From: an uncultured Candidatus Bathyarchaeia archaeon
GTDB lineage: Archaea > Thermoproteota > Bathyarchaeia > Bathyarchaeales > Bathycorpusculaceae
Reading direction: 5' to 3'
DNA: 51,643 nt
Assembly (NCBI GenBank): GCA_964477645.1
Contig: CAYZEP010000001.1
Span: forward strand, 1-51,643
Below, one piece after another: positions 7,906-44,935 of the stretch. The stretch's first letter is position 1. Every line of letters starts with the position of its first letter. The position numbers were made by a program, and so were the translations under genes. The notes beneath the pieces are model-generated. The model was not told the DNA's origin, searched no databases, and worked only from the letters and a program-made list of their open reading frames with translations.

Positions 7906-7927
7906 TAAATTAAAAGAGGCTTCGTAA

Positions 7928-8594: not shown

Positions 8595-8827
8595 GGTTAG
8601 AGACCTCTACATTATTGTTGTTTTTTGCTGGATTTATAATGTCTCTTATTTCTGCGTGTGTGCAACCGCGATAGGCGCTTCTATTCGGGGTCAAATATGG
8701 TTGAGTGGGAGTTGATGTGAAGCGAGGATTTATTCAGAAAAAGTGATTTGTGAGTTAGAGCCTCAAGTTCGTGTTCTTTCCGTAAGGTTTTTACATTGCA
8801 GTTTTTATCAGTGTTTGAGGGTTAAAT

Positions 8828-9577
8828 TTGAGTGAAGAAGTTAAGATTGTTGAGAAGAAGGAGATCCCATCTGGCGTCGTCATGCTCTACGGTTTCCCAG
8901 ATGTTGGTTTGGTAGGCGTCATTGCAGCTTCGCATTTGATGTCAGAGCTTGAAAACATGGATGAGGTGGCATATATGGATTCAAAGTTGTTGCCACCGTT
9001 AATTGTCTTGCATGAAGGGTTGCCGCATTCGCCGATAAGAATTTTTGGAAACCAGGATGTGCTCTTAGCTGTTTCTGAAACAGCCATACCTGCAGATACG
9101 ATTTATCCAATAATGAATGCTTTGATTGATTGGGGAAAAAGCAAAAATGTTAAAATGATGGTTTCGCTGAGCGGCATCCCAATTCAAGAGAGACAGGATG
9201 CTCAAGAACTGAAAGTGTTTGCTGCCGCATCAAGTTCGGAGATGTTGAAAATGGTTAAAGAGAAGGGCACAGAAATATTGAATGAAGGATACATGGTTGG
9301 TCCCCAAGCGATCATGCTACAGCGTTGCGCAAGATTGGGGTTGCCAGCTCTAACACTACTCGCGCAGTGTTTCCTCAATTACCCAGATCCAGAAGCAGCA
9401 GCACAAGTATTAAAGGAATTGGCAAAAATAACGGGAATAAAAGTGGATACTTCGAAACTTTTAGAGAAGGGCGAGGAAATTCGTTTGAAGGCAAGGGATG
9501 TTATGAAGCGAACTCAGCAAGAGTTGACTAAGATGAAGAAGGGGCAGGAGTATGATATTCCATTGTACGTGTCTTAA
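8828..9577 (+). CDS. PAC2-family proteasome assembly chaperone-like protein
   Basis: 249 aa with a TTG start. VVMLYGFPDVGLVGVIAASHL and the later VSLSGIP segment match the PAC2 (ATP-grasp-like) family pattern. Confidence 0.65.
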   Translation: MSEEVKIVEKKEIPSGVVMLYGFPDVGLVGVIAASHLMSELENMDEVAYMDSKLLPPLIVLHEGLPHSPIRIFGNQDVLLAVSETAIPADTIYPIMNALIDWGKSKNVKMMVSLSGIPIQERQDAQELKVFAAASSSEMLKMVKEKGTEILNEGYMVGPQAIMLQRCARLGLPALTLLAQCFLNYPDPEAAAQVLKELAKITGIKVDTSKLLEKGEEIRLKARDVMKRTQQELTKMKKGQEYDIPLYVS

Positions 9578-9591
9578 GGAGGAAAACAAGA

Positions 9592-10035
9592 ATGCCCAAT
9601 AGAAGGAAAAGGTCAATTCTTGATATAATAAGCGAATATTTTGAAAACTTGGAGGAAATGGCTGAACAATTAGAAGAAAGACTCATTGAGAAACCAAGCT
9701 GGGACCTGAAAGCTTGCGCGTTTGAGCCGCTTCGTGACATAATGGTGACCCCTACAGAAGTCATAGTGACCGTTGATTTACCCTTAACTGAAGAGAACAC
9801 AATACAAGTTAAACCAGTAGAGAAGGATACACTTGAAATATCGGCAAGAATGAAGCGGAAGATACGGTTCGAGGACTTCGGTATAACACATCAAAAGGGC
9901 GAGTTTCAAACATTTCACTGCCACACGCGTATCCCAGTGCAAGTCCACATGGACAAAATGCATTTCCGATTTAAAAAGGGAATACTTGAAATTCACCTAC
10001 CACGCAAACATGAACATACAATTTCAATAGAATAG
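9592..10035 (+). CDS. Hsp20/alpha-crystallin-domain small heat-shock protein
   Basis: 147 aa. The core VTVDLPLTEENTIQVKPVEKDTLEISA....F..RIPV....KMHFRFKKGILEIHLPRK follows the alpha-crystallin-domain beta-sandwich pattern. It starts 15 nt after the PAC2-like gene. Confidence 0.6.
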   Translation: MPNRRKRSILDIISEYFENLEEMAEQLEERLIEKPSWDLKACAFEPLRDIMVTPTEVIVTVDLPLTEENTIQVKPVEKDTLEISARMKRKIRFEDFGITHQKGEFQTFHCHTRIPVQVHMDKMHFRFKKGILEIHLPRKHEHTISIE

Positions 10036-10193
10036 GCATCGAAGCCTCAGCCCCTTAAATGTCTTCACAAATCAGACGGCTCTTCTCGCATCATCGGCTT
10101 CAAATTTGTTATACAAGACAACAAAATAAACTTTGATGGAAAATCTTAACAATAAGTTACGCTAACTTCTAGAGCAAATTAGTTGGTGAAATA

Positions 10194-10397
10194 TTGACAG
10201 TGGAACGAGCAATTCATGTCACTATGTTTATTCTCATACTAGTAGGTTTATACGGTATAACTGCTTGGACTTGGACCAGCTACGCTCATATAGAAAATGA
10301 TTTATTGAAAGGTGCGAGCATCGCATTAAGTTGGGGAGTGATCCTCTTAATCCTTTACTTAGGCTTTAAGAAACTCGATTGGGACTGGTGGAGTTAG
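10194..10397 (+). CDS. small two-helix membrane protein (hypothetical)
   Basis: 67-aa ORF with a TTG start and two hydrophobic stretches. It overlaps the 3' end of the convergent GNAT gene by 32 nt. Support is weak. Confidence 0.25.
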   Translation: MTVERAIHVTMFILILVGLYGITAWTWTSYAHIENDLLKGASIALSWGVILLILYLGFKKLDWDWWS

Positions 10398-10914
10398 TCA
10401 GTATTACACCCATTACTAATTCATCGTGATATTTTCCGTCTTCCCCGAAGCAGGCGTCTTTCTTTAGTCCCTCAATTTTGAAGCCGAATTTTTGATAAAG
10501 ATGTATTGCTGGCTTGTTATCTGCTATAACGCTTAAGCCTATTCTGTGCAGTCCTTCCTTTTTCGCAAGCTCTATGAGTTTAGCAAGCATCGCTGTACCT
10601 AGTCCTACATTATGAAAGTCTTGATGAAGATAAATCGCAATGTCGCTAGTGCCTTTCCGTCGTGAATAAGGAAACTTGTACAAATGTGCGTCCCCAATTA
10701 TTTTGTCCTCATGAAAGGCGACAAGGGCTATTAGGTTCTGCAAGTTACTGAACCGCCGTTCAATGGTTTCTCTTGCGTAGGGAGGCATTCCCCAACGAAC
10801 AGTTTCATCCGAAAGAGACTCGTACATTTCGATGAGTTTCTCTTTATCTTCTATCCTAAGTTCCTTTATCAAAACGATTCTGCCATCTTTCAATTTGATG
10901 TTAAAAGCATCCAA
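10366..10914 (-). CDS. GNAT-family N-acetyltransferase
   Basis: 182 aa. Acetyl-CoA-binding motif HQDFHNVGLGTAMLAKLIELAKKEG (Q/RxxGxG/A) followed by YQKFGF. Confidence 0.75.
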   Translation of the reverse strand: MDAFNIKLKDGRIVLIKELRIEDKEKLIEMYESLSDETVRWGMPPYARETIERRFSNLQNLIALVAFHEDKIIGDAHLYKFPYSRRKGTSDIAIYLHQDFHNVGLGTAMLAKLIELAKKEGLHRIGLSVIADNKPAIHLYQKFGFKIEGLKKDACFGEDGKYHDELVMGVILTNSTSPNRVS

Positions 10915-10979
10915 AAAGGTACAACCTCAAAATATGGATAGGACACGCCAAGTGTTTCGTTTAAAATCATCCTTTCATT

Positions 10980-11372
10980 TTACTTTGCTCTGATAATTTT
11001 TACTTTACCTAGTATTCGCCAATATTCGATTTCAACACCGGCGACAAGCTTCGCTTTCAATTCCTCCTCTTCGGGAAAAGGAACATCCAGATACTCGTAC
11101 GTTTCCAAGTCCATTATTTGGACGGTGGAAGGTGTGACCGCGTAGATTTGACCCATTCTTTTATCGAGCATCGGTACTTCCGCATTTGCATCCACAGGTT
11201 TGACAATACTTCTTTTAACTCCGTCGAAAATGCCTATGGCCACTATTCTTGCTTTGGCTGCGCCGTGTTTTCCAGGTTTTGATTTCGTTATATCAACTAT
11301 ATGGCATGGTTCACCATCGACAATCATGTAGCCGCCGACACGTAAACTTCCAACATCAACTGGTTTACTCAT
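10980..11372 (-). CDS. eif5a: translation initiation factor 5A (aIF5A)
   Basis: 130 aa. Hypusination loop TKSKPGKHGAAKARIVAIGIFDG plus a C-terminal OB fold. Confidence 0.9.
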   Translation of the reverse strand: MSKPVDVGSLRVGGYMIVDGEPCHIVDITKSKPGKHGAAKARIVAIGIFDGVKRSIVKPVDANAEVPMLDKRMGQIYAVTPSTVQIMDLETYEYLDVPFPEEEELKAKLVAGVEIEYWRILGKVKIIRAK

Positions 11373-11466
11373 GCACGCACCAACTTACTACAGCCCTCAT
11401 CCACAGCAATTTTAAACAACATCCATATATAGATTAAGGTGTCGCTAATAGCTGAAAGGTGAAACC

Positions 11467-12315
11467 GTGTTCAAAAGTGTGGGCTTAGTTGCCCGTTTCG
11501 ACAAAAAGAACGCCATGAGACTTGCGGAAGATTTAGCCGAATACCTAGGGAAAAAAGGATTAGAGGTATATGTGGAAGACACGTTAGCGGAGAAAATGGG
11601 TACAAAAGAAAAAAGCATCTCATTGAGGAAAATGAAAACAGATTTCATAATCACAATCGGCGGAGACGGAACAATTTTAAGAACATGCGTTTCAATCCCA
11701 AAGCCAGAACCGCCAATACTCGCAATAAACATGGGTATTCGGGGTTTCCTGACCGAAGTGCAACCGAAACAAGCCTTAACTGCGATAGGCAAATGCTTGA
11801 AAGGACAATTTACCATCGAAAAATGCATGAAACTTTCGACAACCGTAGACAACATAAAGTTTCCAGAAGCCTTGAACGAAGTACTAATCTCAGCGGATGA
11901 ACCAGCAAAACTACTTTACGCTCAAACCTTAAAAGACAAAGAACCAATTCTAAACTGTCAAGCAGACGGGTTAATGATAGCCACACAAACTGGGTCCACT
12001 GGTTATTCACTCTCAGCCGGAGGACCTGTTTTAGACCCAAGCGTAGACGCCTTTGTTCTGACACCAGTATGTGCCTTAAGCGTTTTCCGTTCGATTGTTT
12101 TTCCAGCAGATTCAAACCTCACAATTAAGGTTGTCAGACCGAAAAAAATACTTGTAGTAATCGATGGCTATCACCGCCAACTCATAAGTTCTAAACTTCC
12201 AACCATAACCGTTACACGCTCCAAACACGAAACATCTTTCATAAGGTTTAAGGAAAACTTTTACCATCGTTTAAGAAGCAGAATTCTTTTCAAGGGACTT
12301 GGAGGAAAATTCTAA
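11467..12315 (+). CDS. nadK: NAD kinase
   Basis: 282 aa with a GTG start. GGDGTILR motif and TGSTGYSLSAGGP motif. Confidence 0.85.
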   Translation: MFKSVGLVARFDKKNAMRLAEDLAEYLGKKGLEVYVEDTLAEKMGTKEKSISLRKMKTDFIITIGGDGTILRTCVSIPKPEPPILAINMGIRGFLTEVQPKQALTAIGKCLKGQFTIEKCMKLSTTVDNIKFPEALNEVLISADEPAKLLYAQTLKDKEPILNCQADGLMIATQTGSTGYSLSAGGPVLDPSVDAFVLTPVCALSVFRSIVFPADSNLTIKVVRPKKILVVIDGYHRQLISSKLPTITVTRSKHETSFIRFKENFYHRLRSRILFKGLGGKF

Positions 12316-12416
12316 CGGTTAGGGTAAATGAGAGAGTAATAGTTTTAGACACCTCCGCCTTTGTAGCTGGTTTTGACCCATTTTCAATAAGCGAAGAACA
12401 ATATACTGTCCCGGTA

Positions 12417-12845
12417 GTGAGGGAGGAAATAAGAGAAAGCTCTATGGCTTGGGTTAGATTTAAAACGGCAGTAGAAAGTGGAAAGTTAAAAGTTAAAACG
12501 CCCCAAAGTAGTTTTGTAGATGAGGTAAAAGCCTCGGCAACCCTTGTTGGGGATGCATTTTTTCTCTCAGAAGCAGATATTCAAGTCCTGGCACTGGCTT
12601 TAGAACTCAAGACGTATGGTTGTTCTCCGTTGATTGCCACAGACGACTACTCCATACAAAATGTTGCAAATCAAATGGGTTTAGAATTTGCTTCACTAGC
12701 TACCTTCGGCATCCGCTTCCGTTTACAATGGATAAGATACTGCCCAGCATGCAACAGAAAATATCCAGCAAATTACAGGTCCAGAAGATGCGACGTCTGC
12801 GATACGGAGCTAAAAAGGAAGCCCATCGCCAAAAAAGCAACTTAA
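12417..12845 (+). CDS. nob1: Nob1-like endonuclease (PIN domain plus zinc ribbon); the real 5' end probably lies upstream of 12417
   Basis: C-terminal ribbon CPACN...CDVCD and PIN core ATDDYSIQNVANQMGL. The same frame stays open back to 12252 and encodes RVIVLDTSAFVAGFDP (12333-12380), the expected PIN N-terminus with the catalytic Asp. No ATG, GTG or TTG lies in that stretch. Confidence 0.7.
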   Translation: MREEIRESSMAWVRFKTAVESGKLKVKTPQSSFVDEVKASATLVGDAFFLSEADIQVLALALELKTYGCSPLIATDDYSIQNVANQMGLEFASLATFGIRFRLQWIRYCPACNRKYPANYRSRRCDVCDTELKRKPIAKKAT

Positions 12846-12917
12846 ACCGTAACAACCTTCATAAAATACAAAGCAAGAGTTAAACGTCATAAAGCAAAAT
12901 ATTGGTGTGGAAAACCC

Positions 12918-13493
12918 ATGAGTTCAATTGAAAGGGAAGGGATATATTTTAAGGAAGCAGGCTCGCAAAATACTGATGCTTTATTGAATCATGTCAAAAA
13001 ATATATGAAAAAAGAAGGTATAAAAGACATTGTAGTTGCTTCAACAACAGGTGAAACGGGAGCAAAAGCATCTAAAACCTTCAAAGGATACAATGTTGTT
13101 ATCATCACACACTGCCATGGTTTCCAAGAACCTGGAAAAAGCGAATTACTAGAGGAGCATAAAAGAGAGATTCTGGCAAATAGAGCGAAGATTTTCACAG
13201 GTGTCCACGCTTTAAGCAGTGCAGAACGGGCAATTCGCAAGAATTTCAGTACGATCCAGCCCTTAGAATTGATCGCTAATACTCTTAGACTTATGGGAGA
13301 AGGAACAAAAGTATGCGTAGAAATCACCTTGATGGCAGCAGACGCGGGTTTAATTCCAGTTGACAAAGATATTGTTTGCATCGCCGGGACAGGACAAGGC
13401 GCAGACACCGCGCTTCGGATAAAACCTGCAAACGCCGCAAGATTCTTCGATTTAAAAATAAGAGAAGTTATAGCAAAACCCCACGACTTCTAA
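12918..13493 (+). CDS. conserved archaeal protein resembling the pyruvate-kinase C-terminal alpha/beta domain family
   Basis: 191 aa. VVASTTGETGAKA and IAGTGQGADTA glycine-rich loops. Assigned from memory of a COG1751-like family; function unknown. Confidence 0.4.
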   Translation: MSSIEREGIYFKEAGSQNTDALLNHVKKYMKKEGIKDIVVASTTGETGAKASKTFKGYNVVIITHCHGFQEPGKSELLEEHKREILANRAKIFTGVHALSSAERAIRKNFSTIQPLELIANTLRLMGEGTKVCVEITLMAADAGLIPVDKDIVCIAGTGQGADTALRIKPANAARFFDLKIREVIAKPHDF

Positions 13494-13502
13494 GAAGAGT
13501 GG

Positions 13503-14354
13503 ATGTATAAGATAATGAAAGTTGATGACAAACAAGTCGAAGAATTAGTTAAGAAATGGTTCACAAAAACGTCTCGCCACGAATGGCGACGCTTACAGCG
13601 AGACCCATATCACCAAATCGAGTTTATTGTCACCATGCACTTCCTTGAAAAGTATCTACCGAAACACGGCTTAGTTTTGGATGCTGGAGGAGGACCAGGC
13701 AGATATGCAATTGAATTGGCAAAGCGAGGTCACGACGTTATCTTATTAGACCTTGTTCCAGAAATGCTGAAACTCGCGAGAAGGAAAATTAAGAAGGCGG
13801 AGGTTCTGGGAAAAGTCAAGCAGCTTGTGCAAGGTTCCATTGAAGATTTATCCATGTTTGCCGACGAAAAATTTGACGCTGTGTTATGTTTAGGAGCACC
13901 CCTAGGTCATTTGTTAAATGTTAAACAAAGGGAAAAAGCTGCTTCAGAGCTTACACGCGTTGCGAAAAGAGACGCCCCAATTTTTGTCTCAGTCATCAGC
14001 CGCATCGGATTACTAAGAACAATATTCATTAGATTCCCACATGAAATGCAATATGCAAAACACCACTGGGAAGTTGGCGACTACATTCCAGGTCTACAAG
14101 GAGAAGGCTTCACAGCAGCCCATTGGTTCTTGCCAGAGGAATTACGCGAACTTTTTGAGAGACAAGGCGTAGAGACATTGGAGATGGCGGGTCTGGAGGG
14201 ACTTTCTTCCCACCATGAAAAGGAAACAAACAGGCTTTTCAAGGATCAGGAAAAGTGGAAACAGTGGATTGAAATTCTGCTAAAAATTTGCACGCACCCT
14301 TCAGTTGTTGGAAGCACCGAACACTTTTTACTTGTCGGCAGAAAACATGGTTAA
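13503..14354 (+). CDS. class I SAM-dependent methyltransferase
   Basis: 283 aa. Motif I VLDAGGGPGRYAIELAKRG, then the acidic residue in VILLDL. Confidence 0.75.
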   Translation: MYKIMKVDDKQVEELVKKWFTKTSRHEWRRLQRDPYHQIEFIVTMHFLEKYLPKHGLVLDAGGGPGRYAIELAKRGHDVILLDLVPEMLKLARRKIKKAEVLGKVKQLVQGSIEDLSMFADEKFDAVLCLGAPLGHLLNVKQREKAASELTRVAKRDAPIFVSVISRIGLLRTIFIRFPHEMQYAKHHWEVGDYIPGLQGEGFTAAHWFLPEELRELFERQGVETLEMAGLEGLSSHHEKETNRLFKDQEKWKQWIEILLKICTHPSVVGSTEHFLLVGRKHG

Positions 14355-14388
14355 CACAGGCACGCACTTACAATACGAGGTTTAAACC

Positions 14389-15396
14389 ATGTCTTCAGAA
14401 AACGCCATAGAAGTCTCGAACTTAACAAAGTATTACGGTAAATTGCTGGCAGTTGATCATATCAATTTTGAGGTCAAGCGCAAAGAGCTATTTGGATTGC
14501 TCGGACCTAACGGCGCTGGAAAGACAACAACCATCCGTATGATTTGTGGTATGCTCAGACCTACGGGTGGATCAGTTGTTGTAGCTGGCTTTGATGTGTC
14601 TAAAAAACCAGAGGAGGCCAAACGAAGAATCGGTTTAGTCCCTGACATCTCAAATCTGTTCGGGGAATTAAGCGCTAGAGTAAACTTAGAGTTCATGGGA
14701 AAATTGTATGGTTTAGACAAAAAGACACGCCGAGAACGAATTGACCAAGTTCTTGAACTTTTCCAATTAAAGGACCGAGGAAACGACCTAATCAAGTACT
14801 ACAGTAAGGGCATGCATCGGCGTTTAACCATAGCGGCAGCCCTCATCCACCAGCCCGAAATCCTAGTTATGGACGAACCAACCAGTGGCTTAGACGCCCA
14901 AACAGCAAGGTTAGTTAGAGAAATTATCATTAACCTCAACAGGGAAGGCAGAACCGTGCTCTTAACCACCCATCAGATAGACGAAGCAGACCGACTCTGT
15001 CAACGTGTGGGCATAATTGACCACGGTCGCGTAATCGCATTAAACACGCCAGCAGAACTAAAAGACAGCACAGAGGGCACACGCGCCCTAGAAATCAAAG
15101 TCCTAAACGGTGTAGATCAGCAACGATGGCTCCCCATCCTCAGTGGGGCTGAAGGTGTGGACCAAGTCTTCTTGGCAGAGGGAAAGGTAAGAGTATTGTC
15201 TAAGGATTTGCCCCAAGTAATTCCAACAATTGTGAATCTCATTAACAAACATGGTGGAAAAATTGAGAACATCTCAGTAGCGCAACCTACCTTAGAGGAC
15301 GCTTTTATAAATCTGACGGGTAGAAGCATTCGAGAGGAATCTATGTCGAAGGAAGATTATCTCAGGAGAAGATTATCTCGGAGTGGAATGAGATGA
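14389..15396 (+). CDS. ABC transporter ATP-binding protein (ABC-2 exporter type)
   Basis: Walker A GPNGAGKTT, signature YSKGMHRRL, Walker B ILVMDEPTSGLD, H-loop TTHQ. Confidence 0.9.
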   Translation: MSSENAIEVSNLTKYYGKLLAVDHINFEVKRKELFGLLGPNGAGKTTTIRMICGMLRPTGGSVVVAGFDVSKKPEEAKRRIGLVPDISNLFGELSARVNLEFMGKLYGLDKKTRRERIDQVLELFQLKDRGNDLIKYYSKGMHRRLTIAAALIHQPEILVMDEPTSGLDAQTARLVREIIINLNREGRTVLLTTHQIDEADRLCQRVGIIDHGRVIALNTPAELKDSTEGTRALEIKVLNGVDQQRWLPILSGAEGVDQVFLAEGKVRVLSKDLPQVIPTIVNLINKHGGKIENISVAQPTLEDAFINLTGRSIREESMSKEDYLRRRLSRSGMR

Positions 15397-16142
15397 AAAC
15401 ATTCAAACCTCTGATGCATTCTATCTACATCGCTGAAAACGACTTGCGGCAATCGTTCAAGTCAGTACGCCATGTGGTGTGGAGTCTTCTCTTCCCAATA
15501 TTCATGATGTTAACCTTTAGTTTTAGATATGGTGCTGTTGGACTAGACCCTGCGTTTATGAATTTTCTCATACCGGGCATTGTAGCCATGACTGCCATGT
15601 TCGGAAGCATCAATGAAACCATGAGTATAGTTTGGGACAAATCTTTAGGGGTGTTTGACCGTATTTTGGCAGCTCCAGTTTCATCTACTTCTATTATAGT
15701 TGGGAAGACTATGGCAGGTGCGGTCATGGGCGTTATAAGCGCTCTTGTTTTGCTCGTTATAGGCGAGTTGTTCTTCAGTGTTTCATTTATCAACATCGGT
15801 ATTGTTCTCATGATTATCGTGCTTGCAAGTTTTTCTTTCACAGGTATTGGAACAATAATATCTGGCTTAGCGTCTGAACCAAGGGAAGCTATGATGCTCT
15901 CGAATCTTCTTAGGTTTCCAATGATGTTCCTAGGCGGCGTTTTCTTTCCTATTGAGACGATGCCGATGCCGCTTCCTTACGTGGCTAGAGCTCTTCCGCT
16001 TACATACGCAACAGAAGCATTAAGGGCTGCTATGACCGGAAACATGAGTGTGGTTTTATTTGATGCACTTGTGCTTTTAGTTTATACAATAAGTACAATG
16101 GTAGTCGGTTCAAAGATATTGATGAGAGTCATGACGAGATGA
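15393..16142 (+). CDS. ABC-2 family transporter permease
   Basis: 249 aa with about 6 hydrophobic helices. A 4-nt overlap (ATGA) with the ATPase gene suggests translational coupling. The last 26 nt lie inside the left 68-bp direct repeat. Confidence 0.8.
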   Translation: MKTFKPLMHSIYIAENDLRQSFKSVRHVVWSLLFPIFMMLTFSFRYGAVGLDPAFMNFLIPGIVAMTAMFGSINETMSIVWDKSLGVFDRILAAPVSSTSIIVGKTMAGAVMGVISALVLLVIGELFFSVSFINIGIVLMIIVLASFSFTGIGTIISGLASEPREAMMLSNLLRFPMMFLGGVFFPIETMPMPLPYVARALPLTYATEALRAAMTGNMSVVLFDALVLLVYTISTMVVGSKILMRVMTR

Positions 16143-16184
16143 ACTTACTGTTATGCAGAGCATGGTTAGACGTTATTGCTTTCG
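16117..16184. repeat. left copy of a perfect 68-bp direct repeat (putative attL)
   Basis: tattgatgagagtcatgacgagatgaacttactgttatgcagagcatggttagacgttattgctttcg is identical at 16117-16184 and 19620-19687. Identity breaks at both ends (a/c before, t/c after). Confidence 0.9.
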
Positions 16185-16277
16185 TTTTATTCGTAAGGAA
16201 AGTTCCGTTGCATAAACTATTTTTCCGAAAACTATTAGAGTTTAATCTGAGAAATACACTATTGGAGGAAGGGGCTT

Positions 16278-18587
16278 ATGAGAAGGTTAATTTTTCTCCT
16301 CATCATTTTGATTGTCTTGTATTTGGTTTCTTTTTTTGTTTCAGGATACAGTCAATCTTCTGAGCACACGACTTTCAGAAATACTAAGATTGAAGGCTTG
16401 AGTGTCTACTTCTTCTATGGTGAAGGATGCCCGCATTGTACTAAAGTCAAACCTTTCATCGATGAGATGGAGAGATCCTATGGTTTGAATATTGAGCGGT
16501 TTGAGGTTTACGGAAATAGAGCGAATATGAAGCTAATCCAAGAATATTTTGAGAGATACAACGTTCCAGTCAATAATAGGGGAGTCCCGGCTGTTTTTGT
16601 GTCAGATTCTTATCTTGTCGGTGACGTGGATATTCTCAATGGTCTTGAAAATCTTGTATCAAACTCAGTGACCGCTGATTCCGAAACGGCTCAGTTGTCG
16701 AATGAGGGTAACAGCGAAGAATGTACTTCTAATGGTTACGATTGTTTATCATTCTTGACTATTACTGCTGCTGCCTTGGTTGATTCTGTTAATCCTTGTT
16801 CTATTGCTATTCTTTTCTTTTTGATGGCTGGTTTGCTTTTGCTTCGGAATCGCAAAAGGGCTTTGAGAGTTGGTTTGGCCTTTGCTTTATCCGTCTTTCT
16901 TGCAAACTTGTTGTTTGGATTAGGAATATTTTCAACGCTTTCTGTGAGCGGCTTTTCTTCTATTTTTGATACTGTTGCTGGTTTTGTAGCTATTTTGACT
17001 GGTATCTTGCTGGTTAAGGATTGTTTTTTCCATGGGAAAGTGATCGCTATGGAAGTACCTCGTTCTTTGCAGCCTTATTTGAAACATAGACTGAGTGAGG
17101 CTTTTTTTGGAAAATCTTCAAGAGTTTTGGGAGCCTTTCTTATAGGTTTTCTTGTCACCTTATTTGAGATTCCTTGTACTGGAGGACCATACTTTTTTGT
17201 TTTGGCTAGGATGGCTGATGATGCAACTAGAATGCAGACTATTCCAATATTGCTGTATTACAATTTGATTTTTGTTATGCCCTTGATTCTAATCTCGACT
17301 CTGCTCTATTTCGGCTCGATTCAGGTTGAGAGAGTAAGAGAATGGAAAGACAGGAACAAGCAGTTTTTAAATTTGGTTAGGGGTTTGCCGCTGATTGCGG
17401 TGGGTTTCGTAACTATTTCAACGTCTCTAGTGATTCAATGGATGAGTGTAGCATTAAGCGTTTATAGAGCAGCTTTCATTCCCTTGATTGGGCCCGTTGC
17501 TTCTTACATAGTTTATCAAATATTTTCAAAGTCAAAATACAGGGTTAAAGCTTTGAAATATCTAACCGTTGTTGGAATAGGCAGTACTCTCTTTTTGGCT
17601 GCGATATCAAATGCTCAAACAAGTTTTCTAGGCAACCCCGGAGAAACGGGATCAGAAACTAAGAGTTATCAAGTAACGGGTGAGGCTACTACTGCAACGA
17701 CTATTCAACCTTACACAGACTGTGAAGCTGAAGGTGGAAGATGTATGATGGGTTCAATGGGATGTAGCATTGCGTGCAAACGAATGAATTATGCTATGGG
17801 GGTTTGTGAACTTGGTCTTCCTAGTTTAGGCTATTATCCGGGCTGTGGTGAGAGAGATTGCTGTTGTTTTTGCGTGGGTGAAAAAGAAAATTGTACAGAT
17901 GTAGATAAAGATGGTTATGCTATAGAGGGTGGGAATTGTGGACTAATAGACTGTAATGATGCTGATGCTAGTGTTCATCCAGGAGCAGTTGAAATTTGCA
18001 ATGGAATTGATGATGATTGTGATGAACAAGTAGATGAAGGTGATATTTGTGTAGGTTGTGTAAAAGTAAAAGTTGTAAATGAAACTGATGATCCAGTTCA
18101 AGCTGATGTTATTTTAGACTGTCTCACAGCTATTGGTTCTACTAATTATGCTGGATCTGCAGTGAGCTGTAATCATGGGAAAATACCTGGATTTTATTAT
18201 GTAGATGCTTTTATTGGTTTTCCTTGTTATGGTGAATCATATATCAACATAGACGAATATGGCACTGGGTATGCAGAAATTGGATCTTCAGATTGTGTAT
18301 GGTACGATGAAAATTGTATGGGAGGAAGTTCACTTACTACCACAATAACAACCACCTCTTCAACAACTACAACTGTTTCCAGTGACGGTGGTAGCCTAAA
18401 TACAACTACATCCACAACCTCTTCAACAACTACGACAATTTCTTGTCAGTGTACTGAATGGAAGAATACCTTCGAATGTTGTAATATAGATAGAAAATGG
18501 CGGAGTAAAGGTAATTTATTCGAAAGAACTTGTAACCCAAGGGGTTGTGATATAGAAAAAAGATGTAAGACTTCTAAAATTCTTTGA
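16278..18587 (+). CDS. multi-domain membrane protein: signal anchor, thioredoxin-like domain (CPHC), DsbD/CcdA-like transmembrane thiol-disulfide transporter, extra TM helices, cysteine-rich extracellular domain with Ser/Thr-rich stalks
   Basis: 769 aa. YFFYGEGCPHCTKV is thioredoxin/glutaredoxin-like. LVDSVNPCSIAILFF and LFEIPCTGGPYFF carry the two conserved membrane Cys of the DsbD_2/CcdA family. DCNDADASVHPGAVEICNGIDDDCDEQVDEG matches the MopE-type putative metal-binding repeat. There are roughly 29 Cys after residue 480, and two TSSTTTT linkers. GGAGGAAGGGG precedes the ATG. Confidence 0.7.
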   Translation: MRRLIFLLIILIVLYLVSFFVSGYSQSSEHTTFRNTKIEGLSVYFFYGEGCPHCTKVKPFIDEMERSYGLNIERFEVYGNRANMKLIQEYFERYNVPVNNRGVPAVFVSDSYLVGDVDILNGLENLVSNSVTADSETAQLSNEGNSEECTSNGYDCLSFLTITAAALVDSVNPCSIAILFFLMAGLLLLRNRKRALRVGLAFALSVFLANLLFGLGIFSTLSVSGFSSIFDTVAGFVAILTGILLVKDCFFHGKVIAMEVPRSLQPYLKHRLSEAFFGKSSRVLGAFLIGFLVTLFEIPCTGGPYFFVLARMADDATRMQTIPILLYYNLIFVMPLILISTLLYFGSIQVERVREWKDRNKQFLNLVRGLPLIAVGFVTISTSLVIQWMSVALSVYRAAFIPLIGPVASYIVYQIFSKSKYRVKALKYLTVVGIGSTLFLAAISNAQTSFLGNPGETGSETKSYQVTGEATTATTIQPYTDCEAEGGRCMMGSMGCSIACKRMNYAMGVCELGLPSLGYYPGCGERDCCCFCVGEKENCTDVDKDGYAIEGGNCGLIDCNDADASVHPGAVEICNGIDDDCDEQVDEGDICVGCVKVKVVNETDDPVQADVILDCLTAIGSTNYAGSAVSCNHGKIPGFYYVDAFIGFPCYGESYINIDEYGTGYAEIGSSDCVWYDENCMGGSSLTTTITTTSSTTTTVSSDGGSLNTTTSTTSSTTTTISCQCTEWKNTFECCNIDRKWRSKGNLFERTCNPRGCDIEKRCKTSKIL

Positions 18588-38197: not shown

Positions 38198-38755
38198 ATG
38201 AAAACTCAGATAATCTTAAAAGACTGGCCAGTATACAAAACTGTATCCATTAGAGATGACCAGTGGAGAGGAAGTTTGAAACTAAAAGAGAACATCCAAT
38301 TGTGGCTAATGGGCTCCATAAATGACCCGATTGCAAAAATACTCGCAAAAAATAGTCATTTGACGAAAACACAGCTCGAAACATTACTCATTGACATTTT
38401 ATCTGAAAATGTCGCAGGCAAATCGTTAAAATACGATGAAAAAGCCAAATTACGGCTAACAAAGGCAAAAATAAGCCGCGGCGCCTTTAATAGGACTCTA
38501 AAACAAGCAAAAGAGAACGTTGTAAAGGCAATTTACACAGTGCTACTTTTAGGGTACTTAGGAGTCTTCGAAAGTACAACACTAGACCCCTATCTCGAAA
38601 TAGCAAACAAATTACAAGAGTATGTAGAAGCATACAAAAAAATACCCGACAAAAGCGAAGAATTAAATGACCATCTAAAAGTCATAGAAATGATAAAAGA
38701 AGAGCTTGAATCAAGCCTAAAACAGCTTTCCAATCCATCAGAAAGCATTGTGTGA
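38198..38755 (+). CDS. hypothetical protein, possible HTH (sigma region 4/Tfx-like segment)
   Basis: 185 aa. KISRGAFNRTLKQAKENVVKAIYTVLLL loosely resembles the recognition helix and following helix of Tfx/LuxR-type HTH proteins. No firm family assignment. Confidence 0.4.
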   Translation: MKTQIILKDWPVYKTVSIRDDQWRGSLKLKENIQLWLMGSINDPIAKILAKNSHLTKTQLETLLIDILSENVAGKSLKYDEKAKLRLTKAKISRGAFNRTLKQAKENVVKAIYTVLLLGYLGVFESTTLDPYLEIANKLQEYVEAYKKIPDKSEELNDHLKVIEMIKEELESSLKQLSNPSESIV

Positions 38756-39040
38756 CGTCACAAATCACACTAGAAAGCGACTGGTAACTTCGGAAGAAAG
38801 CGCGTGTGAGATAACAGAATAGAGAAAAACACTGAAAATCCAAAAATAGCCTAAAAATGAAGCGTTCACATAGGGCACGAATATGGGCGCTGAATAGAGT
38901 GCAGTTTTTTAGAACTGTGATTTGTGATGTCATGGGATTTCTAAAATATGTTAGATACCATAATCTTTAAATCCTTCACGATTAGACTGTGATTTGTGAT
39001 GTAACGTGTTTGAATCACATGTGCTCACATGTAAATCACA
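38751..39040. promoter_or_regulatory. cluster of TGTGAT/ATCACA half-sites, including a 12-nt palindrome and two 17-nt direct repeats (putative operator array)
   Basis: tgtgacgtcaca is a perfect palindrome at 38751-38762. atcaca occurs at 38764-38769, 39014-39019 and 39035-39040. actgtgatttgtgatgt is identical at 38914-38930 and 38986-39002, 72 bp apart, and each copy holds two tgtgat units. Confidence 0.6.
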
Positions 39041-39045
39041 GAGGG

Positions 39046-39765
39046 GTGTATGTGACTGACATTTTGCTGGTTCTTGTGGGTGTTTTGCTTGCCATGACTG
39101 TTGGTGCTGCGATTGAATACTATAAGCAAGTTTGTAAGGTTCGAAGGGAATATGAGAAGGCAAAGGAAGCAGTGGAAGATGTAGTTTTGAGTTTTAACAG
39201 GCAATTTAGGCGTGAGTCTGAGAAGCTTGAGTTTTTTGCATACAAGACTGAGGCAATTGCTTCGAAGAGCGATGGAGCTATGGGTAAAATAGGGGAAACT
39301 GAGAAAAGAGTGCAGCTTCTAGAAGCCAAAATAGGTGCTGCTGTAGAAGATAGAGGGATGATGTCAGCAAGGTTAGATGAAATCGATAATAAGATACGTG
39401 ATACTGTTGCATCACAGGAAACATTAGCTACCAAAGTTTCGAGCATAGAAGAACAAGCCCGACAGTTTTCGATCGTTCCTGAGGCAAGAGTTGAGGCGGT
39501 GATTCCCATAAAAAGGGAAAAGGCTTTGGCGCCGTTGACTGAAACTGAAGTGTCTGTGCTGGAGATGTTGGCTTCGGAAGGCTCTAAGACAGCGCCTGAG
39601 ATTAAGGAAAGAATCAAGCTCAGCCGGGAACATACAGCAAGGTTGATGAAGAAACTTTACGAAGAGGGTTATTTGGAAAGAGATACTGGCAAGATTCCGT
39701 TTAAGTATAGTGTTAAGAAAGAGATGGAAAAAATTTTGAGAAAAACAGAAAGCAAAGCAGCATAG
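39046..39765 (+). CDS. membrane-anchored coiled-coil protein with a C-terminal MarR-like winged helix
   Basis: The N-terminal TM helix ILLVLVGVLLAMTVGAAI is followed by about 130 aa of heptad-like charged sequence. The C-terminus then reads LTETEVSVLEMLASEGSKTAPEIKERIKLSREHTARLMKKLYEEGYLERD. A GTG at 39046 preceded by GAGGGG was chosen over the track start 38989, which lies inside the repeat array. Confidence 0.6.
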   Translation: MYVTDILLVLVGVLLAMTVGAAIEYYKQVCKVRREYEKAKEAVEDVVLSFNRQFRRESEKLEFFAYKTEAIASKSDGAMGKIGETEKRVQLLEAKIGAAVEDRGMMSARLDEIDNKIRDTVASQETLATKVSSIEEQARQFSIVPEARVEAVIPIKREKALAPLTETEVSVLEMLASEGSKTAPEIKERIKLSREHTARLMKKLYEEGYLERDTGKIPFKYSVKKEMEKILRKTESKAA

Positions 39766-39769: not shown

Positions 39770-41350
39770 TTATAAGGAAGCAGATTCTTGCTGGCTCAGC
39801 TGTTTGAGGCGCTTCTCCATCTCTGAAAGCTGCTGCGATTCTGAAAGCCCATAGTCGCCTTTTCCCCTTTTATCCAAATATTCTGGGTAATGTACGACTT
39901 TTACGGGTACAGCAAACCTAATTTTTGGTTCAGATATAAGCAGAGCCTCGCCAACATCGAGCATCTTTATTTCCGTGTCACTGTACTCAAGATAAGGCGT
40001 ATTTTCGGTTAAGTATGCCCTGTCTTTTCGCAGCTCTGTCTTCATAATGACTTTTGTCCACAATTCAGCAAAAACATCAAAATTAATCCTCGAAGGCCTC
40101 GGTGTTACTGCATTCAGCCCGACTCTATATTTGCGATACGTTAGGGCGATGTCAGAAAAGATAGTTCTCGGCTTATTTGGGTCAAGGAATTCATGCGCCT
40201 CTTCAAGTGTTATGAGAAGCGTCGGCAGTTTCTGCCATTCTCCATAATTTTCTTCCCACATGCGCTTATAATGTTCAGCCACGGCGGAAGCCGATAGACA
40301 AACAATTCTGTTTTGATCTTCAGAACGAAGCCCAGAAATGTCGACCAGACAAGTTATCCCTTTGCATACATTTTGTATAATGCTATCAACAAAAGTGTAA
40401 TTGGAGGCAGGAAAAAGGTCACGGGACAACGATGACAATTTTTGCATGAGAGCCTCAACAGCAGTCTTGTGTGCACGCACGCCGACATGCCCTTCCGTTC
40501 CATAGGTTTGTCGCGCTTTTTCTATCCATTCTTTACCCAACTGTTTGTAAAGAGTCCAAGCAAGCCGTTTCTGAGGAGCTTGCACATCTGAAAAAAGTGT
40601 GTCGAGTTTTGCTGGAGTTATCGTATATAAGCCCATCGCCATCTTTCCATCTCTTGCAGAATAATATTGAACCCTGCTGTGAAAAAATGGATGGTCTCTC
40701 AAGCCTTTTTGTGGCTTAATTTCCTTTCCTTCTAAGAGCTGCCCGGCAAAGTCAAAAATGAGAGCCACAGTTTTAGGGCTGTTGTCGATGATCTGGGCAT
40801 TTAGGATTAACTCAGTGTTTGTTTTCCCCGAGCCAGTCATGCCAAACATGCCCATCATTCGCGGCATGGCTTCAATGTTTATGCCAACCGATCCCAACAT
40901 CTGATCCCCTGTGCGGAGATGCCCGACTTCAAGCTCTCCTGATAGTTTGAGAACCGCGCAGTCTTCTTCGCTAGCATTGTAAACTTTGTCTCTGTAGTTT
41001 GGATTGAACGTCGGAGAATGCACCTTGTCAGATTTCTTCTCCAGAAAGAGGATAGCATCGATGCTTCTGTAGGCTGAGTAGGGACCGAAGGCTTCCTTGC
41101 CTTCTGCTTCTCGCAGTTGCTCAATTGTGTCAAGTGTAGAGCTACTCTCGGCGTTAACAACCCTGGCATAGAAACTCCTTTCACTCGAGTCTATTCGGAC
41201 AATTTGTCCAAATGAAAGAGCGACCCCCTTATTAACAAAGAAGGAGATGGAGTCTCCCTTCGTTCCGCACACAAATCCTATAGACTCAGAATTGTTCACC
41301 CCACCACTCCCACTCAAATGCATGTTTAATCCCATGAAGCTCATCGGCAA
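39770..41350 (-). CDS. herA: HerA-like FtsK/HerA-superfamily ATPase (DUF87 type)
   Basis: 526 aa. A HAS-barrel-like N-terminus (IGFVCGTKGDSISFFV...GQIVRI), Walker A FGMTGSGKTNT, Walker B LLITLEEAHEFL, and TPRPSRI (compare TQRPS). Start is ambiguous: TTG 41350, ATG 41344, or GTG 41299, which would overlap the nurA stop by 14 nt. Confidence 0.75.
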   Translation of the reverse strand: MPMSFMGLNMHLSGSGGVNNSESIGFVCGTKGDSISFFVNKGVALSFGQIVRIDSSERSFYARVVNAESSSTLDTIEQLREAEGKEAFGPYSAYRSIDAILFLEKKSDKVHSPTFNPNYRDKVYNASEEDCAVLKLSGELEVGHLRTGDQMLGSVGINIEAMPRMMGMFGMTGSGKTNTELILNAQIIDNSPKTVALIFDFAGQLLEGKEIKPQKGLRDHPFFHSRVQYYSARDGKMAMGLYTITPAKLDTLFSDVQAPQKRLAWTLYKQLGKEWIEKARQTYGTEGHVGVRAHKTAVEALMQKLSSLSRDLFPASNYTFVDSIIQNVCKGITCLVDISGLRSEDQNRIVCLSASAVAEHYKRMWEENYGEWQKLPTLLITLEEAHEFLDPNKPRTIFSDIALTYRKYRVGLNAVTPRPSRINFDVFAELWTKVIMKTELRKDRAYLTENTPYLEYSDTEIKMLDVGEALLISEPKIRFAVPVKVVHYPEYLDKRGKGDYGLSESQQLSEMEKRLKQLSQQESASL

Positions 41351-42311
41351 AACTACAAGAGATCTCTTCCCTGTGCAGAACTTCTAGCAAACCAGCGTTG
41401 CGCAGTGCTTCCTCAACTTGGTCGTAGTAAGAAAGAAGCATGGCGTCAGAGGGTGCAGAAAACTCGTGGGCTAGCCAAAGAGATATAGGGTAGCCAATAC
41501 ACCTCGGATCCTCGGATACGCAGGTTAAAGGAGAAAGCAGTTCACTGATTTCTTGATTAGCTAAATACTCCATTATGTCACAGCGAAAGACACGGGGGCT
41601 CTCTCCACATAATTTTATGACCGAGATATCCCCGTAAAGGCTTTTGTCTTTGTCAGCTTTTCTCACAGGATGGTAAACCCAAAAATCGTAGGGTGACATT
41701 GCATATACAGCAGCTACAAAATCTCTTCCCTTTTCATCATGTAATGAGGGCGAATTTTTGCTGATAGCAAGAAGGGTTATTTCGTCTCTTTCACACTTTT
41801 CGTAAAGTGAAACTCGGAACTTCCTTTCCCCACCGAAATATCCGCCACCATCAAGTAAAAGGTACATACTACGACCATACGTATGGTCGTAGTAATTGCC
41901 GCTTTTACCTTGAAGAATATCTAATCCCATCTGACTTTCCAGTTCAATTCTTACATCTTTGAGAAAGTTGCTACGAGTAATTGCGTCTCCAACCACAGTG
42001 CATACTCTTTCCCTGTAGTTCCAACCAACATCACGCTCTTTAACTATGGCATATGCCGCCCGCATAAGGTAGATCCCCCAGTTGTTTGCCCTTTTGAGTG
42101 TTCTCGTCGAGCAGTCAACAGCAACAAAACTTCCAGAGAACCTAGCAAATTTCTTTAAAGGTTTAATCAAAAACGCATTCGGTTTGGCAGTAATCACTGG
42201 CTCTTCCTTCACTTCAACCGCACCTGTAACTCTCCCTTTATCTACGTAAATCTTAAGTTTCTTCTCCATTTCAGTGAAGTCTGCCTTAACATTTTCGTTC
42301 ACTTGCATCAC
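41286..42311 (-). CDS. nurA: NurA-like nuclease (RNase H-like fold)
   Basis: 341 aa. FVAVDCSTR, YLLLDGGGY, LLAISKNS and CIGYPISLWLAHEFS follow the order of the NurA catalytic motifs (D, D, K.S, YP..L..AH/D). GGGGGTGAAGGG lies upstream of the GTG-ATG start. Confidence 0.6.
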   Translation of the reverse strand: MMQVNENVKADFTEMEKKLKIYVDKGRVTGAVEVKEEPVITAKPNAFLIKPLKKFARFSGSFVAVDCSTRTLKRANNWGIYLMRAAYAIVKERDVGWNYRERVCTVVGDAITRSNFLKDVRIELESQMGLDILQGKSGNYYDHTYGRSMYLLLDGGGYFGGERKFRVSLYEKCERDEITLLAISKNSPSLHDEKGRDFVAAVYAMSPYDFWVYHPVRKADKDKSLYGDISVIKLCGESPRVFRCDIMEYLANQEISELLSPLTCVSEDPRCIGYPISLWLAHEFSAPSDAMLLSYYDQVEEALRNAGLLEVLHREEISCSFADELHGIKHAFEWEWWGEQF

Positions 42312-42453
42312 CCTTCACCCCCATCACCCGTAAAGTAAAAATCCTTTACTTGCAAAGTTGCTGCACTTTGCTTATTATCTTTTGTTATATTCGCTACCAT
42401 TAAAGGAGTTTTATTTGAGTATGCTCTTAAACAAAATTTGGCAAGTAATCTGT

Positions 42454-42885
42454 TTATGGTATTTGCTGTTTAAGTGTGGCTTGCGAAAAACTTGGAGCCG
42501 CTTTATACTTCAAACGATTAGAAGCCCCTGTCTTAACAAGTATTCCCTTGCTCGCCATCCTAGAAAGATATGTCGCCACTGTGCTTAGGCCTATTGGTTC
42601 TTTAAGTTCCCGCTCATAAACCGATTGAACTTCCCTAGAAGAAAACCAAACAATCGGAAAATGCTTCTGAACGACCGTTCGCACCTTGTCAAATTTAGAC
42701 AACTCATTGCCTACACCTGCAACATTGACTCCGGGGTTGCCCCCGCCACTTGGCATTCCACCTAGCAACTCCACCAAGTCCAAAAGGCGAAGAGCCTTTT
42801 CTCTAGTTATTTGCCCTTCAAAGGCCACAGTGTATTTATTTCCTTCTCCATCGAACAGTTCAACACGCATTTTTCTAGTCGGCAT
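42454..42885 (-). CDS. winged-helix DNA-binding protein (hypothetical)
   Basis: 143 aa. A small N-terminal beta-rich domain and a Gly/Pro linker precede FSSREVQSVYERELKEPIGLSTVATYLSRMASKGILVK (HTH plus wing). It is on the same strand as nurA-herA, with a 142-nt spacer. Confidence 0.5.
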   Translation of the reverse strand: MPTRKMRVELFDGEGNKYTVAFEGQITREKALRLLDLVELLGGMPSGGGNPGVNVAGVGNELSKFDKVRTVVQKHFPIVWFSSREVQSVYERELKEPIGLSTVATYLSRMASKGILVKTGASNRLKYKAAPSFSQATLKQQIP

Positions 42886-43333: not shown

Positions 43334-43360
43334 GTGACACCCCTCTGTTTCCATTGGAAA
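43334..43360 (+). promoter_or_regulatory. origin recognition box ORB1
   Basis: gtgACACCCCtctGTTTCCatTGGAAA combines the dyad TTCC..TGGAAA with a C/G string, as in archaeal ORB elements. It matches 20 of 27 positions with the reverse complement of 43514-43540. Confidence 0.8.
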
Positions 43361-43513
43361 ATAAAACTAAAGCAGTATTAACTATTTCTTACTTTTTCTC
43401 TTAAAGTCTAAAATTTTAAAGAAGAATTATTATTAACCTTTTTCCATTCCTTACCTTTCAGAGTATATTTCTCTTCTAAAGAAATCTAAATTATCTTTTA
43501 AAGTTAAAACAGA
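43361..43513. other. AT-rich duplex unwinding element of oriC
   Basis: A 153-bp stretch between the inverted ORBs, dominated by A/T runs (taaaattttaaagaagaattattattaa, ctaaattatcttttaaagttaaaa). Confidence 0.7.
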
Positions 43514-43540
43514 TTTCCACAGGAAACTTTGGGGTGTGCC
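43514..43540 (-). promoter_or_regulatory. origin recognition box ORB2 (inverted relative to ORB1)
   Basis: + strand TTTCCACAGGAAACTTTGGGGTGTGCC is a TTCCACAGGAAAC dyad followed by a GGGGT string, close to the ORB consensus remembered from Pyrococcus and Sulfolobus origins. Confidence 0.8.
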
Positions 43541-43684
43541 ATCCCGTTTACGTAGCTCTTTGCTATAGTATGCAGGCTTTTCTTTTAGGATTCTTGTGTG
43601 CGAGATTTACTTTTTTGTATGACAGAGCTTATTTTTTATGTCAAAAAGATGAGGCGTTACACTTTGGCTATAAAGAGGAATAAA

Positions 43685-44935
43685 ATGAACGACAATAGCA
43701 TACTTGACAATGTGTTCGAAAAATTCGTAAGTAACGCAAAGATCTATAGGGATAGAGAAGTTCTTCGGCATGATTATTTACCTGACAGACTGCCACATCG
43801 AGAAGAGCAGATTACACAGCTCGGGGAAACAGTAGCTCCCGTCTTAAAGGGTGCAAGAAACTCCAACATATTTATTTATGGAAAAACTGGGACAGGCAAG
43901 ACAGCTGTAACAAAATATGTGCTGAGTCACCTCGAGGTTAAAGCAAAGGAGTTTAACGCGCCTGTTAAGTTTTGTTACGTGAACTGCCGCATAGCCGGGT
44001 CAGAATATCGTGTCTTTGCCAGTTTATGCCAAAGTATAGGCGCGCCTGTTCCTTTCACCGGCTTGTCCGTTGGGGAAGTTTTTGATAGATTTAGAAAAGG
44101 TTTGGATGCTTCTGGAATTATTCTTATCATAGTTTTGGATGAGATTGATGCGTTAATAAAACCAAACAGTGACACTCTCCTTTATGAATTAACGAGAATA
44201 AACGAGAACTTAGGTAAGAGCAAAGTATCTCTCGTTGGCATATCTAACGATCTTCGGCTGAAGGAATTTCTTGACCCGCGTGTTTTGAGTTCTCTTAGCG
44301 AGGAAGAGATTGTTTTTAGGCCTTATGACGCCAGCGAATTAGGGAACATTCTCCTTGAACGTGCAAAATCGGCGTTTTACGATGGTGCGCTGTCCTCTAG
44401 TGCTCTGAGTCTTTGCGCTGCTTTGGCTGCTGCAGAGCATGGTGATGCTAGGCGAGCTTTGGACTTGCTGCGTGTTGCAGGTGAAGTTGCTGAACGAAGC
44501 GGTGCAAGTGTTGTGGTTGAAGAACACGTCCGAGAAGCTGAAAAGCATATTGAACACAATCGCATCACTGAAGCGCTTAAAGATCTAACTCTACATTCAA
44601 AACTTGTAGTTTTAAGCGTCTATTACTTGAATAAAACGGGTGTTCACCGCGCTATCACCGGCGAGATTTACGAAGTTTACAGTGAACTATGTGGGGAACT
44701 GAGACTTATGCCTTTAACGCAACGGCGTTTAGGCACATTGGTGAATGAACTTGATTCCATGGGACTTTTGAATGCCAAGGTCATAAGCATGGGAAGATAT
44801 GGACGCACAAAAAAGATTAGGTTGGAGGTAGCACGTACTCTTGTTAGAGATATTTTCGCAGACGACGATAGACTTGGATGCTTGAGTGACTATGAGCCGA
44901 AATGTCTTTCAAAACGTGCCAACAGTAGGAGTTGA
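43685..44935 (+). CDS. orc1: Orc1/Cdc6 replication initiator
   Basis: LRHDYLPDRLPHREEQ, Walker A YGKTGTGKT, Walker B IVLDEIDAL, sensor/lid GDARRALDLLRVAGEVAE and a C-terminal winged helix. The ATG at 43685 was chosen over the longer track ORF (43598). Confidence 0.9.
   Translation: MNDNSILDNVFEKFVSNAKIYRDREVLRHDYLPDRLPHREEQITQLGETVAPVLKGARNSNIFIYGKTGTGKTAVTKYVLSHLEVKAKEFNAPVKFCYVNCRIAGSEYRVFASLCQSIGAPVPFTGLSVGEVFDRFRKGLDASGIILIIVLDEIDALIKPNSDTLLYELTRINENLGKSKVSLVGISNDLRLKEFLDPRVLSSLSEEEIVFRPYDASELGNILLERAKSAFYDGALSSSALSLCAALAAAEHGDARRALDLLRVAGEVAERSGASVVVEEHVREAEKHIEHNRITEALKDLTLHSKLVVLSVYYLNKTGVHRAITGEIYEVYSELCGELRLMPLTQRRLGTLVNELDSMGLLNAKVISMGRYGRTKKIRLEVARTLVRDIFADDDRLGCLSDYEPKCLSKRANSRS

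Follow-up and report, generated by a model that had tools for sequence, protein, structure and literature searches.

A divergent, accessory NurA-HerA gene pair beside the replication origin of Bathyarchaeia

The DNA analysed here is a stretch of 51,643 nt (the window), contig C1 of a Bathyarchaeia genome of 1.40 Mb in 124 contigs (89.8% complete), in which a nurA-like and a herA-like gene lie next to a candidate replication origin (oriC) and orc1/cdc6 (Table 1). The neighbours of the pair encode a winged helix-turn-helix (wHTH) protein, Orc1, Endo_dU, DP1, a membrane/coiled-coil MarR protein of 258 aa (ccMarR) and a 185-aa protein (p185). Counted from oriC, nurA and herA are the second and third genes, which bears out the origin-flanking position given in an earlier reading of the letters alone (the sequence-only reading); the three minus-strand open reading frames, the 142-nt spacer and the HerA and NurA motifs quoted in that reading were all located. 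The translational overlap that it described is also real, with the herA frame opening within the 3' end of nurA. The nurA start is likely the ATG at 42308, giving the 340-aa form found in the protein collection. The herA start lies somewhere in 41299-41350, with TTG 41350 and GTG 41299 as candidates, but overlap of the residues upstream with nurA coding sequence prevents a firm assignment. The overlap is accordingly 65 nt from TTG 41350 or about 14 nt from GTG 41299, and amounts to about 30-60 nt in orthologous pairs, suggesting that the two proteins are probably made together.

By sequence, the 526-aa protein can be assigned to the HerA family. It scored 40.3 bits against Pfam DUF87 (PF01935), above the cut-off of 23.2, and its nearest solved structure was Sulfolobus HerA (PDB 4d2i, 5.3e-17 over residues 132-484). 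The motifs GMTGSGKT (residues 170-177, Walker A), LEEAHEF (382-388, with the EEAH of Walker B at 383-386) and TPRPS (416-420) lined up in a MAFFT alignment with the canonical ATGAGKSN, IEEAHVF and SQRPK, the last showing a Q to P change. No Pfam match to the HAS barrel was found in the protein, although its N-terminus still aligned with canonical HerA N-termini. The top NCBIfam model was HerA_Thermprot, the repair HerA of Thermoproteota, at 72 bits (cut-off 800), and the protein stayed below the repair-equivalog cut-offs of NF040937 (72.2 bits vs 800) and NF040819 (54.7 vs 970); canonical Thermoproteota HerAs reach 350-870 bits on the NCBIfam HerA model. In PADLOC, whose models here carry no curated cut-offs, the best match was mad8 (43.5 bits), followed by HerA models at 41.6 bits or less.

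For the sequence-only reading, a 341-aa protein that matches no NurA profile would have counted as a refutation, and formally this is the outcome, although deeper evidence overrides it. No profile match was obtained in Pfam (PF09376 even at E <= 10), NCBIfam or PADLOC, a phmmer search of PDB sequences gave nothing, and a PF09376 scan of all six frames of the genome was empty. The protein is nevertheless a NurA, as shown jointly by homology through intermediate sequences, by conservation of the catalytic residues and by a structural model of high confidence. Exhaustive phmmer searches returned proteins of about 340 aa at E values of 1e-12 to 1e-4, and seven of the eight distant full-length matches tested exceeded the PF09376 cut-off of 21 bits (the eighth, P0303, scored 19.7). 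The window NurA has the motifs VAVDCS (D66), ELESQ (E125), LLLDGGG (D154) and GYPISLWLAH (273-282). A profile built on its alignment (A1) found Sulfolobus NurA (2ygk, 4.5e-7) and aligned IDGGS, LMDGSL and GYPFPLLKAH of that protein, with Sulfolobus D58 (IDGGS) and GYPFPLLKAH falling on the conserved active-site positions. D66, E125, D154, D268 and GYP273-275 were invariant across a 52-sequence alignment and H282 was invariant inside the subfamily; these are the candidate catalytic residues. The AlphaFold2 model (predicted local distance difference test, pLDDT, 92.3; predicted template modelling score, pTM, 0.90) was used as a Foldseek query, and the defence nuclease TdpB came out on top by a small margin (1.4e-8, template modelling (TM) score 0.51), followed by the NurA structures 7f6d, 9x1m and 3tai and by EndoV and PIWI folds. 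The subfamily shares a conserved C-terminal EWEWW tail. Within nurA, the palindrome TACTACGACCATACGTATGGTCGTAGTA, the longest perfect palindrome of the 1.4-Mb genome, encodes YYDHTYGRS; it falls inside an 11-aa lineage-specific insertion in the loop before D154, which was seen in the A1 alignment solely in the closest relatives of the window NurA.

The spacer upstream of nurA holds a TATA-like element, aaagataataag, at about 42371-42382, 63-74 nt ahead of the nurA ATG. Across 81 loci, TATA-like [GCT]ATAA[AT][AT] motifs cluster at -80 to -41 before the nurA start, so that the TATA-like signal proposed for the spacer is not only present, together with a Shine-Dalgarno-like tract, but also conserved in position, and the pair appears to have its own promoter. 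A sigma-70 promoter scan was set aside as not meaningful in an archaeon. The hairpin gtaaag-N8-ctttac is indeed found at 42330-42349, with a second one at 42352-42371, but both are window-specific. While the 62-nt leader of the window folds more stably than shuffled versions (z = -2.5), the 81 orthologous leaders show no conserved structure (mean z = -0.10, only 5% below -2), and a role of the hairpin as conserved RNA or operator is rejected.

For comparison of gene order, 80 Bathyarchaeia loci were collected with the NurA profile. The order DP1 - (Endo_dU) - orc1 <oriC> wHTH > nurA > herA < ccMarR < p185 is kept wherever the contig suffices (HerA in 80/80, wHTH in 77/80 and Orc1 in 71/80; where Orc1 is missing, the locus stops at a contig edge in eight cases out of nine). 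Compatibility with one core-gene slot extends to 79 of the 80 loci and is confirmed in all 71 with sufficient flank, where the distance of the pair from orc1 and oriC is no more than about 1.5 kb, even at NurA identities as low as about 50%. We call this family of pairs ori-type. None of the 80 is linked to mre11-rad50, in agreement with the sequence-only reading, which had placed the pair outside such operons. Two loci with the full Bathyarchaeia origin block (L044 and L085) are filed under bacterial names (Sulfotelmatobacter and Krumholzibacteriaceae) of metagenome-assembled genomes (MAGs), probably by mis-binning.

A class-wide census of 151 Bathyarchaeia genomes scored for ori-type NurA found it in 27: seven of the 16 members of the window's family, all of families f4 and f5, and 11 in f7. 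There was none in f2, f3 or f6, and this occurrence excludes a core, class-wide operon. Seven inspected genomes of the window's family or order carry the same origin block with wHTH abutting ccMarR, that is, clean empty sites. In one further genome (G288; L141 8126-9138), the origin-slot nurA contains four in-frame stops and a frame shift and the downstream herA is intact (76% identity), which looks like loss in progress. At the f7 loci inspected, the pair is far from any orc1 or wHTH; its neighbours there are a divergently encoded 210-aa calcineurin-type metallophosphoesterase, a metallo-beta-lactamase-fold protein and a class I aminoacyl-tRNA synthetase, an arrangement conserved in two genera (L137 7429-8912; L142 10049-11501).

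The pair had been described as an orphan with no Mre11-Rad50 partner. Neither mre11 nor rad50 occurs in the 51-kb window, but this absence is uninformative about the genome because both genes lie on other contigs: on C107, mre11 precedes the 5' part of rad50, the frame of which continues at the edge of C4 (C4:48258-48311). The last 28 residues of a second HerA (HerA2) are encoded at the edge of C98 (C98:3-86), and the term orphan no longer applies. Assembly breaks cut both rad50, where C107 joins C4, and the second HerA, and simple scans under-count the repair genes of this genome because these breaks split them. Across the class, a second and very divergent pair, NurA2 (about 360 aa) and HerA2 (about 483 aa), is found in 88/151 genomes. 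In f7 and G001 this second pair is part of a nurA-herA-mre11-rad50 row, and in f5 the row is interrupted by a short gap; the best NCBIfam models of HerA2 are CedD and HerA_antiphage. HerA2 accompanies the ori-type pair in 21 of its 27 carriers, and Mre11 is found in 24 of them, compared with 68/151 overall, the three exceptions being 62-80% complete. At least two carriers, G168 (a single 2.15-Mb contig) and G182, have Mre11 without HerA2, so that the ori-type pair would be the sole candidate resection motor there. A third HerA lineage of Bathyarchaeia scores 140-190 bits on the canonical HerA model and lies directly upstream of mre11 in f3 and f9.

In a HerA tree, a quick tree with long-branch warnings, all ori-type HerAs grouped together with a support of 100, and the long stem of their clade stood next to the canonical Thermoproteota repair HerAs, with HerA2 in a separate, very distant clade; profile scores agree, placing ori-type HerA nearer to canonical repair HerA than HerA2 is. 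Comparison of an Orc1+DP1 tree with a NurA+HerA tree revealed supported conflict. L073 and L090 (and L089) group with the window's side by their core genes and have cassettes nested in the distant clade C, and L032 and L055 show the reverse placement. Monophyly of the clade C defined by core genes was rejected on the NurA+HerA data in an approximately unbiased (AU) test (delta log-likelihood (lnL) 306, p = 5e-45), supporting horizontal replacement of the cassette in the same slot. One MAG holds a second copy, at L075, that falls inside the ori-type family and sits on an island (3505-16803) with a restriction-modification (RM) and abortive-infection setting. Genes on one strand encode an integrase, an N6-methylase, a Type I specificity (S) subunit, NurA, HerA and a HEPN-AbiV protein; a RadB-like Rad51-fold gene and a family-B DNA polymerase gene (PolB) follow. 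The N6-methylase carries an HSDR_N domain and matched PADLOC mad2 (Type I/IIG methyltransferase, MTase) at 100.6 bits, the S subunit matched mad5 at 117.7 and HerA matched mad8 at 44.8; NurA-HerA occupies the position where a restriction subunit would be expected.

Taken together, the pair is an accessory, fast-evolving HerA-NurA paralogue, and we are highly confident that it shares the molecular mechanism of HerA-NurA, in which a DNA motor powered by ATP supplies a nuclease, with complex formation and activity inferred from homology. By analogy, a HerA hexamer would pull duplex DNA into a NurA dimer at the expense of ATP, and the dimer would cut the strands delivered to it. As to biological role, we somewhat favour a second or alternative system of DNA-end resection for recombinational repair as the most likely one. 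The pair would then serve as an alternative or back-up in the resection of ends, with Mre11-Rad50 encoded elsewhere and, in most carriers, another NurA-HerA as the pair linked to mre11-rad50. The repair role is favoured because the HerA branches beside repair HerAs, the catalytic residues are intact, the neighbours are housekeeping genes in both settings (the origin slot and f7), co-occurrence with Mre11 is near-universal and, in some genomes, the ori-type pair is the only HerA-NurA found. Several observations weigh on the other side. The pair is dispensable, as the low census count, the empty slots in sister genera and the G288 pseudogene show; the cassette has undergone horizontal replacement in its slot; an RM/Abi island contains one copy; TdpB leads the Foldseek list of the NurA model; it is NurA2-HerA2 that stands in the mre11-rad50 row; and no RNA runs holding the locus were found, the hits being DNA metagenomes only.

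The alternative that survives best, although we consider it unlikely, is that the pair is an effector against mobile elements, in which stand-alone HerA-NurA would engage invading linear DNA at its free ends and break it down, with the same family recruited elsewhere as the translocase-nuclease arm of a methylation-based system. RecBCD achieves a comparable destruction of invading linear DNA from free ends in bacteria. Patchy presence/absence alleles at a single site together with a pseudogene, in-situ horizontal replacement (the AU rejection above), the long HerA stem branch and a NurA too divergent for profiles would all suit such a role, as would the single-strand series of integrase, MTase, S, NurA, HerA and HEPN-AbiV genes at L075, the mad8 top match of the window HerA and the TdpB match of the NurA model. 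On the other hand, the loci fit a core-gene slot (79/80, and 71/71 with flank) that has no adjacent methylase, sensor or other defence gene, the PADLOC matches amount to weak P-loop similarity and NurA has none, HerA branches beside repair HerAs, and a nuclease without self-marking would need specificity for ends. The defence-type module proposed by the sequence-only reading stays as a rival, helped by the family member between RM-type M/S genes and AbiV on the integrase island. In a bolder version, to which we give slightly less credence still, the cassette is no repair duplicate but a stand-alone, horizontally traded nuclease motor against foreign DNA, and L075 would be a new restriction-like system with NurA-HerA replacing the R subunit.

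It is very improbable that the pair is an accessory of the origin or of replication, acting in fork processing, recombination-dependent initiation or cell-cycle co-regulation. Its closeness to orc1 and oriC in all 71 flanked loci (about 1.5 kb) and two loci, L048 and L064, where no wHTH separates the pair from the adjoining origin would speak for it. However, DP1, wHTH, ccMarR and p185 are equally syntenic, so the block is stable as a whole, many sister genera retain the origin block without the pair, and strict origin linkage of the pair is excluded because the clade also has members in f7 that are distant from any orc1. The place beside oriC is rather an inherited slot between the origin-linked wHTH and ccMarR genes and gives no evidence of an origin role.

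The wHTH protein, which the sequence-only reading had joined to the pair in a trio as its DNA-binding sensor or regulator, belongs to the origin and not to the pair. It is single-copy in 198/301 Thermoproteota genomes. Among 20 phylum-level loci sampled outside the window's order, five of them from other Bathyarchaeia families, its gene stands divergently beside orc1 in 12 with no nurA-herA between, and ccMarR and/or p185 adjoin it in those 12; Nitrososphaeria-like and other lineages also show it adjoining orc1 without the pair. The conserved linkage is thus to orc1, with the pair optional. Identity to the window wHTH follows that of Orc1 and DP1 (Spearman rho 0.83-0.85) more closely than that of NurA and HerA (0.53-0.61). 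Its AlphaFold2 model (pLDDT 72) consists of an N-domain of a beta-hairpin plus helix, a disordered Gly-rich linker and a C-terminal winged helix. It scored 20.6 bits on the BlaI/MecI family Penicillinase_R (PF03965), under the cut-off of 22.6, and Foldseek matched the C-terminal half only to the winged helices of MecI, Fur and RosR (E about 4e-3, TM 0.35-0.44); it is a generic winged-helix protein. That it regulates the module is hardly credible and, as an obligate arrangement, largely refuted: its same-strand position immediately upstream in 77/80 loci, its BlaI/MecI-like, repressor-type C-terminal fold and a conceivable repressor action on the downstream promoter in carriers of the pair are set against its residence beside orc1 without the pair, including in empty-slot Bathyarchaeia, the pair without wHTH in L048, L064 and f7, the differing divergence histories and a cassette exchange that leaves wHTH out. 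These observations rule out the trio as a module, and the unit is two genes, nurA-herA, rather than three. The wHTH, ccMarR and p185 genes form an orc1/oriC block that extends well beyond Bathyarchaeia, and their products are candidate origin-associated DNA-binding proteins.

Table 1 Coordinates of the features in the window and of related loci in other genomes.
Feature	Position	Strand	Description
herA-like gene	39770-41350	(-)	526 aa from first TTG; putative divergent HerA-type hexameric DNA translocase
nurA-like gene	41286-42311	(-)	341 aa from GTG; divergent NurA-type nuclease
Palindrome	41867-41894	strandless	28 nt, perfect, within nurA
Spacer	42312-42453	(-)	142 nt; promoter-like element, two hairpins, GGTGA-rich Shine-Dalgarno-like tract
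wHTH gene	42454-42885	(-)	143 aa, two-domain winged-helix; origin/orc1-linked, outside the NurA-HerA unit
Candidate oriC	~43334-43540		inverted pair resembling origin recognition boxes (TTTCCA..GGAAAC..GGGGTGT) flanking an AT-rich stretch, upstream of orc1; read from sequence
orc1/cdc6	43598-44935		Orc1 identity confirmed
Origin-block stretches	window 38198-39765 and 42454-42885; loci L112-L131, L132-L136, L144, L145		
NurA2-HerA2 loci	L098 4970-7563; L105 3182-5715; L108 2708-5235; L138 9218-11652; L139 9314-11742		
Third-lineage HerA loci	L176 2694-5218 (G131); L140 7112-10441 (G246); L177; L178		

Compared with the archaeal HerA-NurA machines of known structure (Sulfolobus solfataricus 4d2i and 2ygk, Pyrococcus 3tai/3tal, Thermococcus kodakarensis 9x1l-9x1p) and that of Deinococcus (7f6d), the window pair shares the adjacent overlapping genes, the Walker A and EEAH Walker B of HerA, the acidic residues and GYP...AH of NurA, the NurA/RNase-H-like fold and a HerA clade beside the canonical Thermoproteota clade. 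Unlike those of the canonical herA-mre11-rad50-nurA operon, ori-type pairs are linked to mre11-rad50 in 0/80 loci. The window pair also misses the Pfam NurA profile and the NCBIfam HerA/NurA equivalogs, has DCS for DGG, TPRPS for SQRP and YRKYR for GRKFG as well as the EWEWW tail on NurA, and belongs to a cassette that is accessory, often lost and horizontally replaced.

TdpAB (8wet/8wfd), SIR2-HerA, DUF4297-HerA and the PADLOC mad8 of the MADS candidate system, which we take to be HerA-family defence modules, likewise combine a HerA-type ATPase with a nuclease, and TdpB is the best Foldseek match of the NurA model; the island copy at L075 resembles MADS in standing behind mad2-like and mad5-like M and S genes. 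In contrast to these modules, the window pair has no modification, SIR2 or DUF4297 partner, lies in a core replication gene context and scores low in PADLOC (43.5 bits), through its ATPase only.

Several nurA-herA paralogue pairs per genome have been described in Pyrobaculum as vertically inherited (Bernick et al. 2012, PMC3396285), and those of Thermoproteales include a CRISPR-associated nurA-csm6-herA cluster (PMC3396285). The resemblance lies in several pairs per genome within the same phylum, one being the presumed repair orthologue and the others still paired but in other contexts; unlike them, the window cassette occupies an origin slot, has no CRISPR or csm6 and has been exchanged in situ. 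The wHTH protein recalls UBP, which with the ucm motif has been reported as origin-associated DNA binding in Thermoproteota (Dhanaraju et al. 2025, PMC12141716), in being small, predicted to bind DNA and linked to oriC within the same phylum. The likeness lies in origin association, and the origin separates the divergent wHTH and orc1 genes; no homology to UBP was seen, with no search aimed at it. A literature search on HerA/NurA of Bathyarchaeia found nothing specific.

The pair is thus a very divergent second copy of the known archaeal NurA-HerA machine, placed beside a replication origin and often lost or swapped by relatives, and its NurA belongs to a subfamily that Pfam and NCBIfam annotation overlooks entirely across a large class of uncultured archaea. 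A HerA-NurA pair that lacks Mre11-Rad50 in its vicinity is the rule here and does not mark an orphan system. Where origin biology is concerned, the wHTH, ccMarR and p185 proteins are more promising than the nuclease pair. Of the HerA lineages of Bathyarchaeia, up to three in number, one acts as an accessory cassette: it has been lost, turned into a pseudogene, exchanged in situ and, in one case, taken up by a restriction-type island. This behaviour offers a tractable example of a repair machine that stands between genome maintenance and defence.

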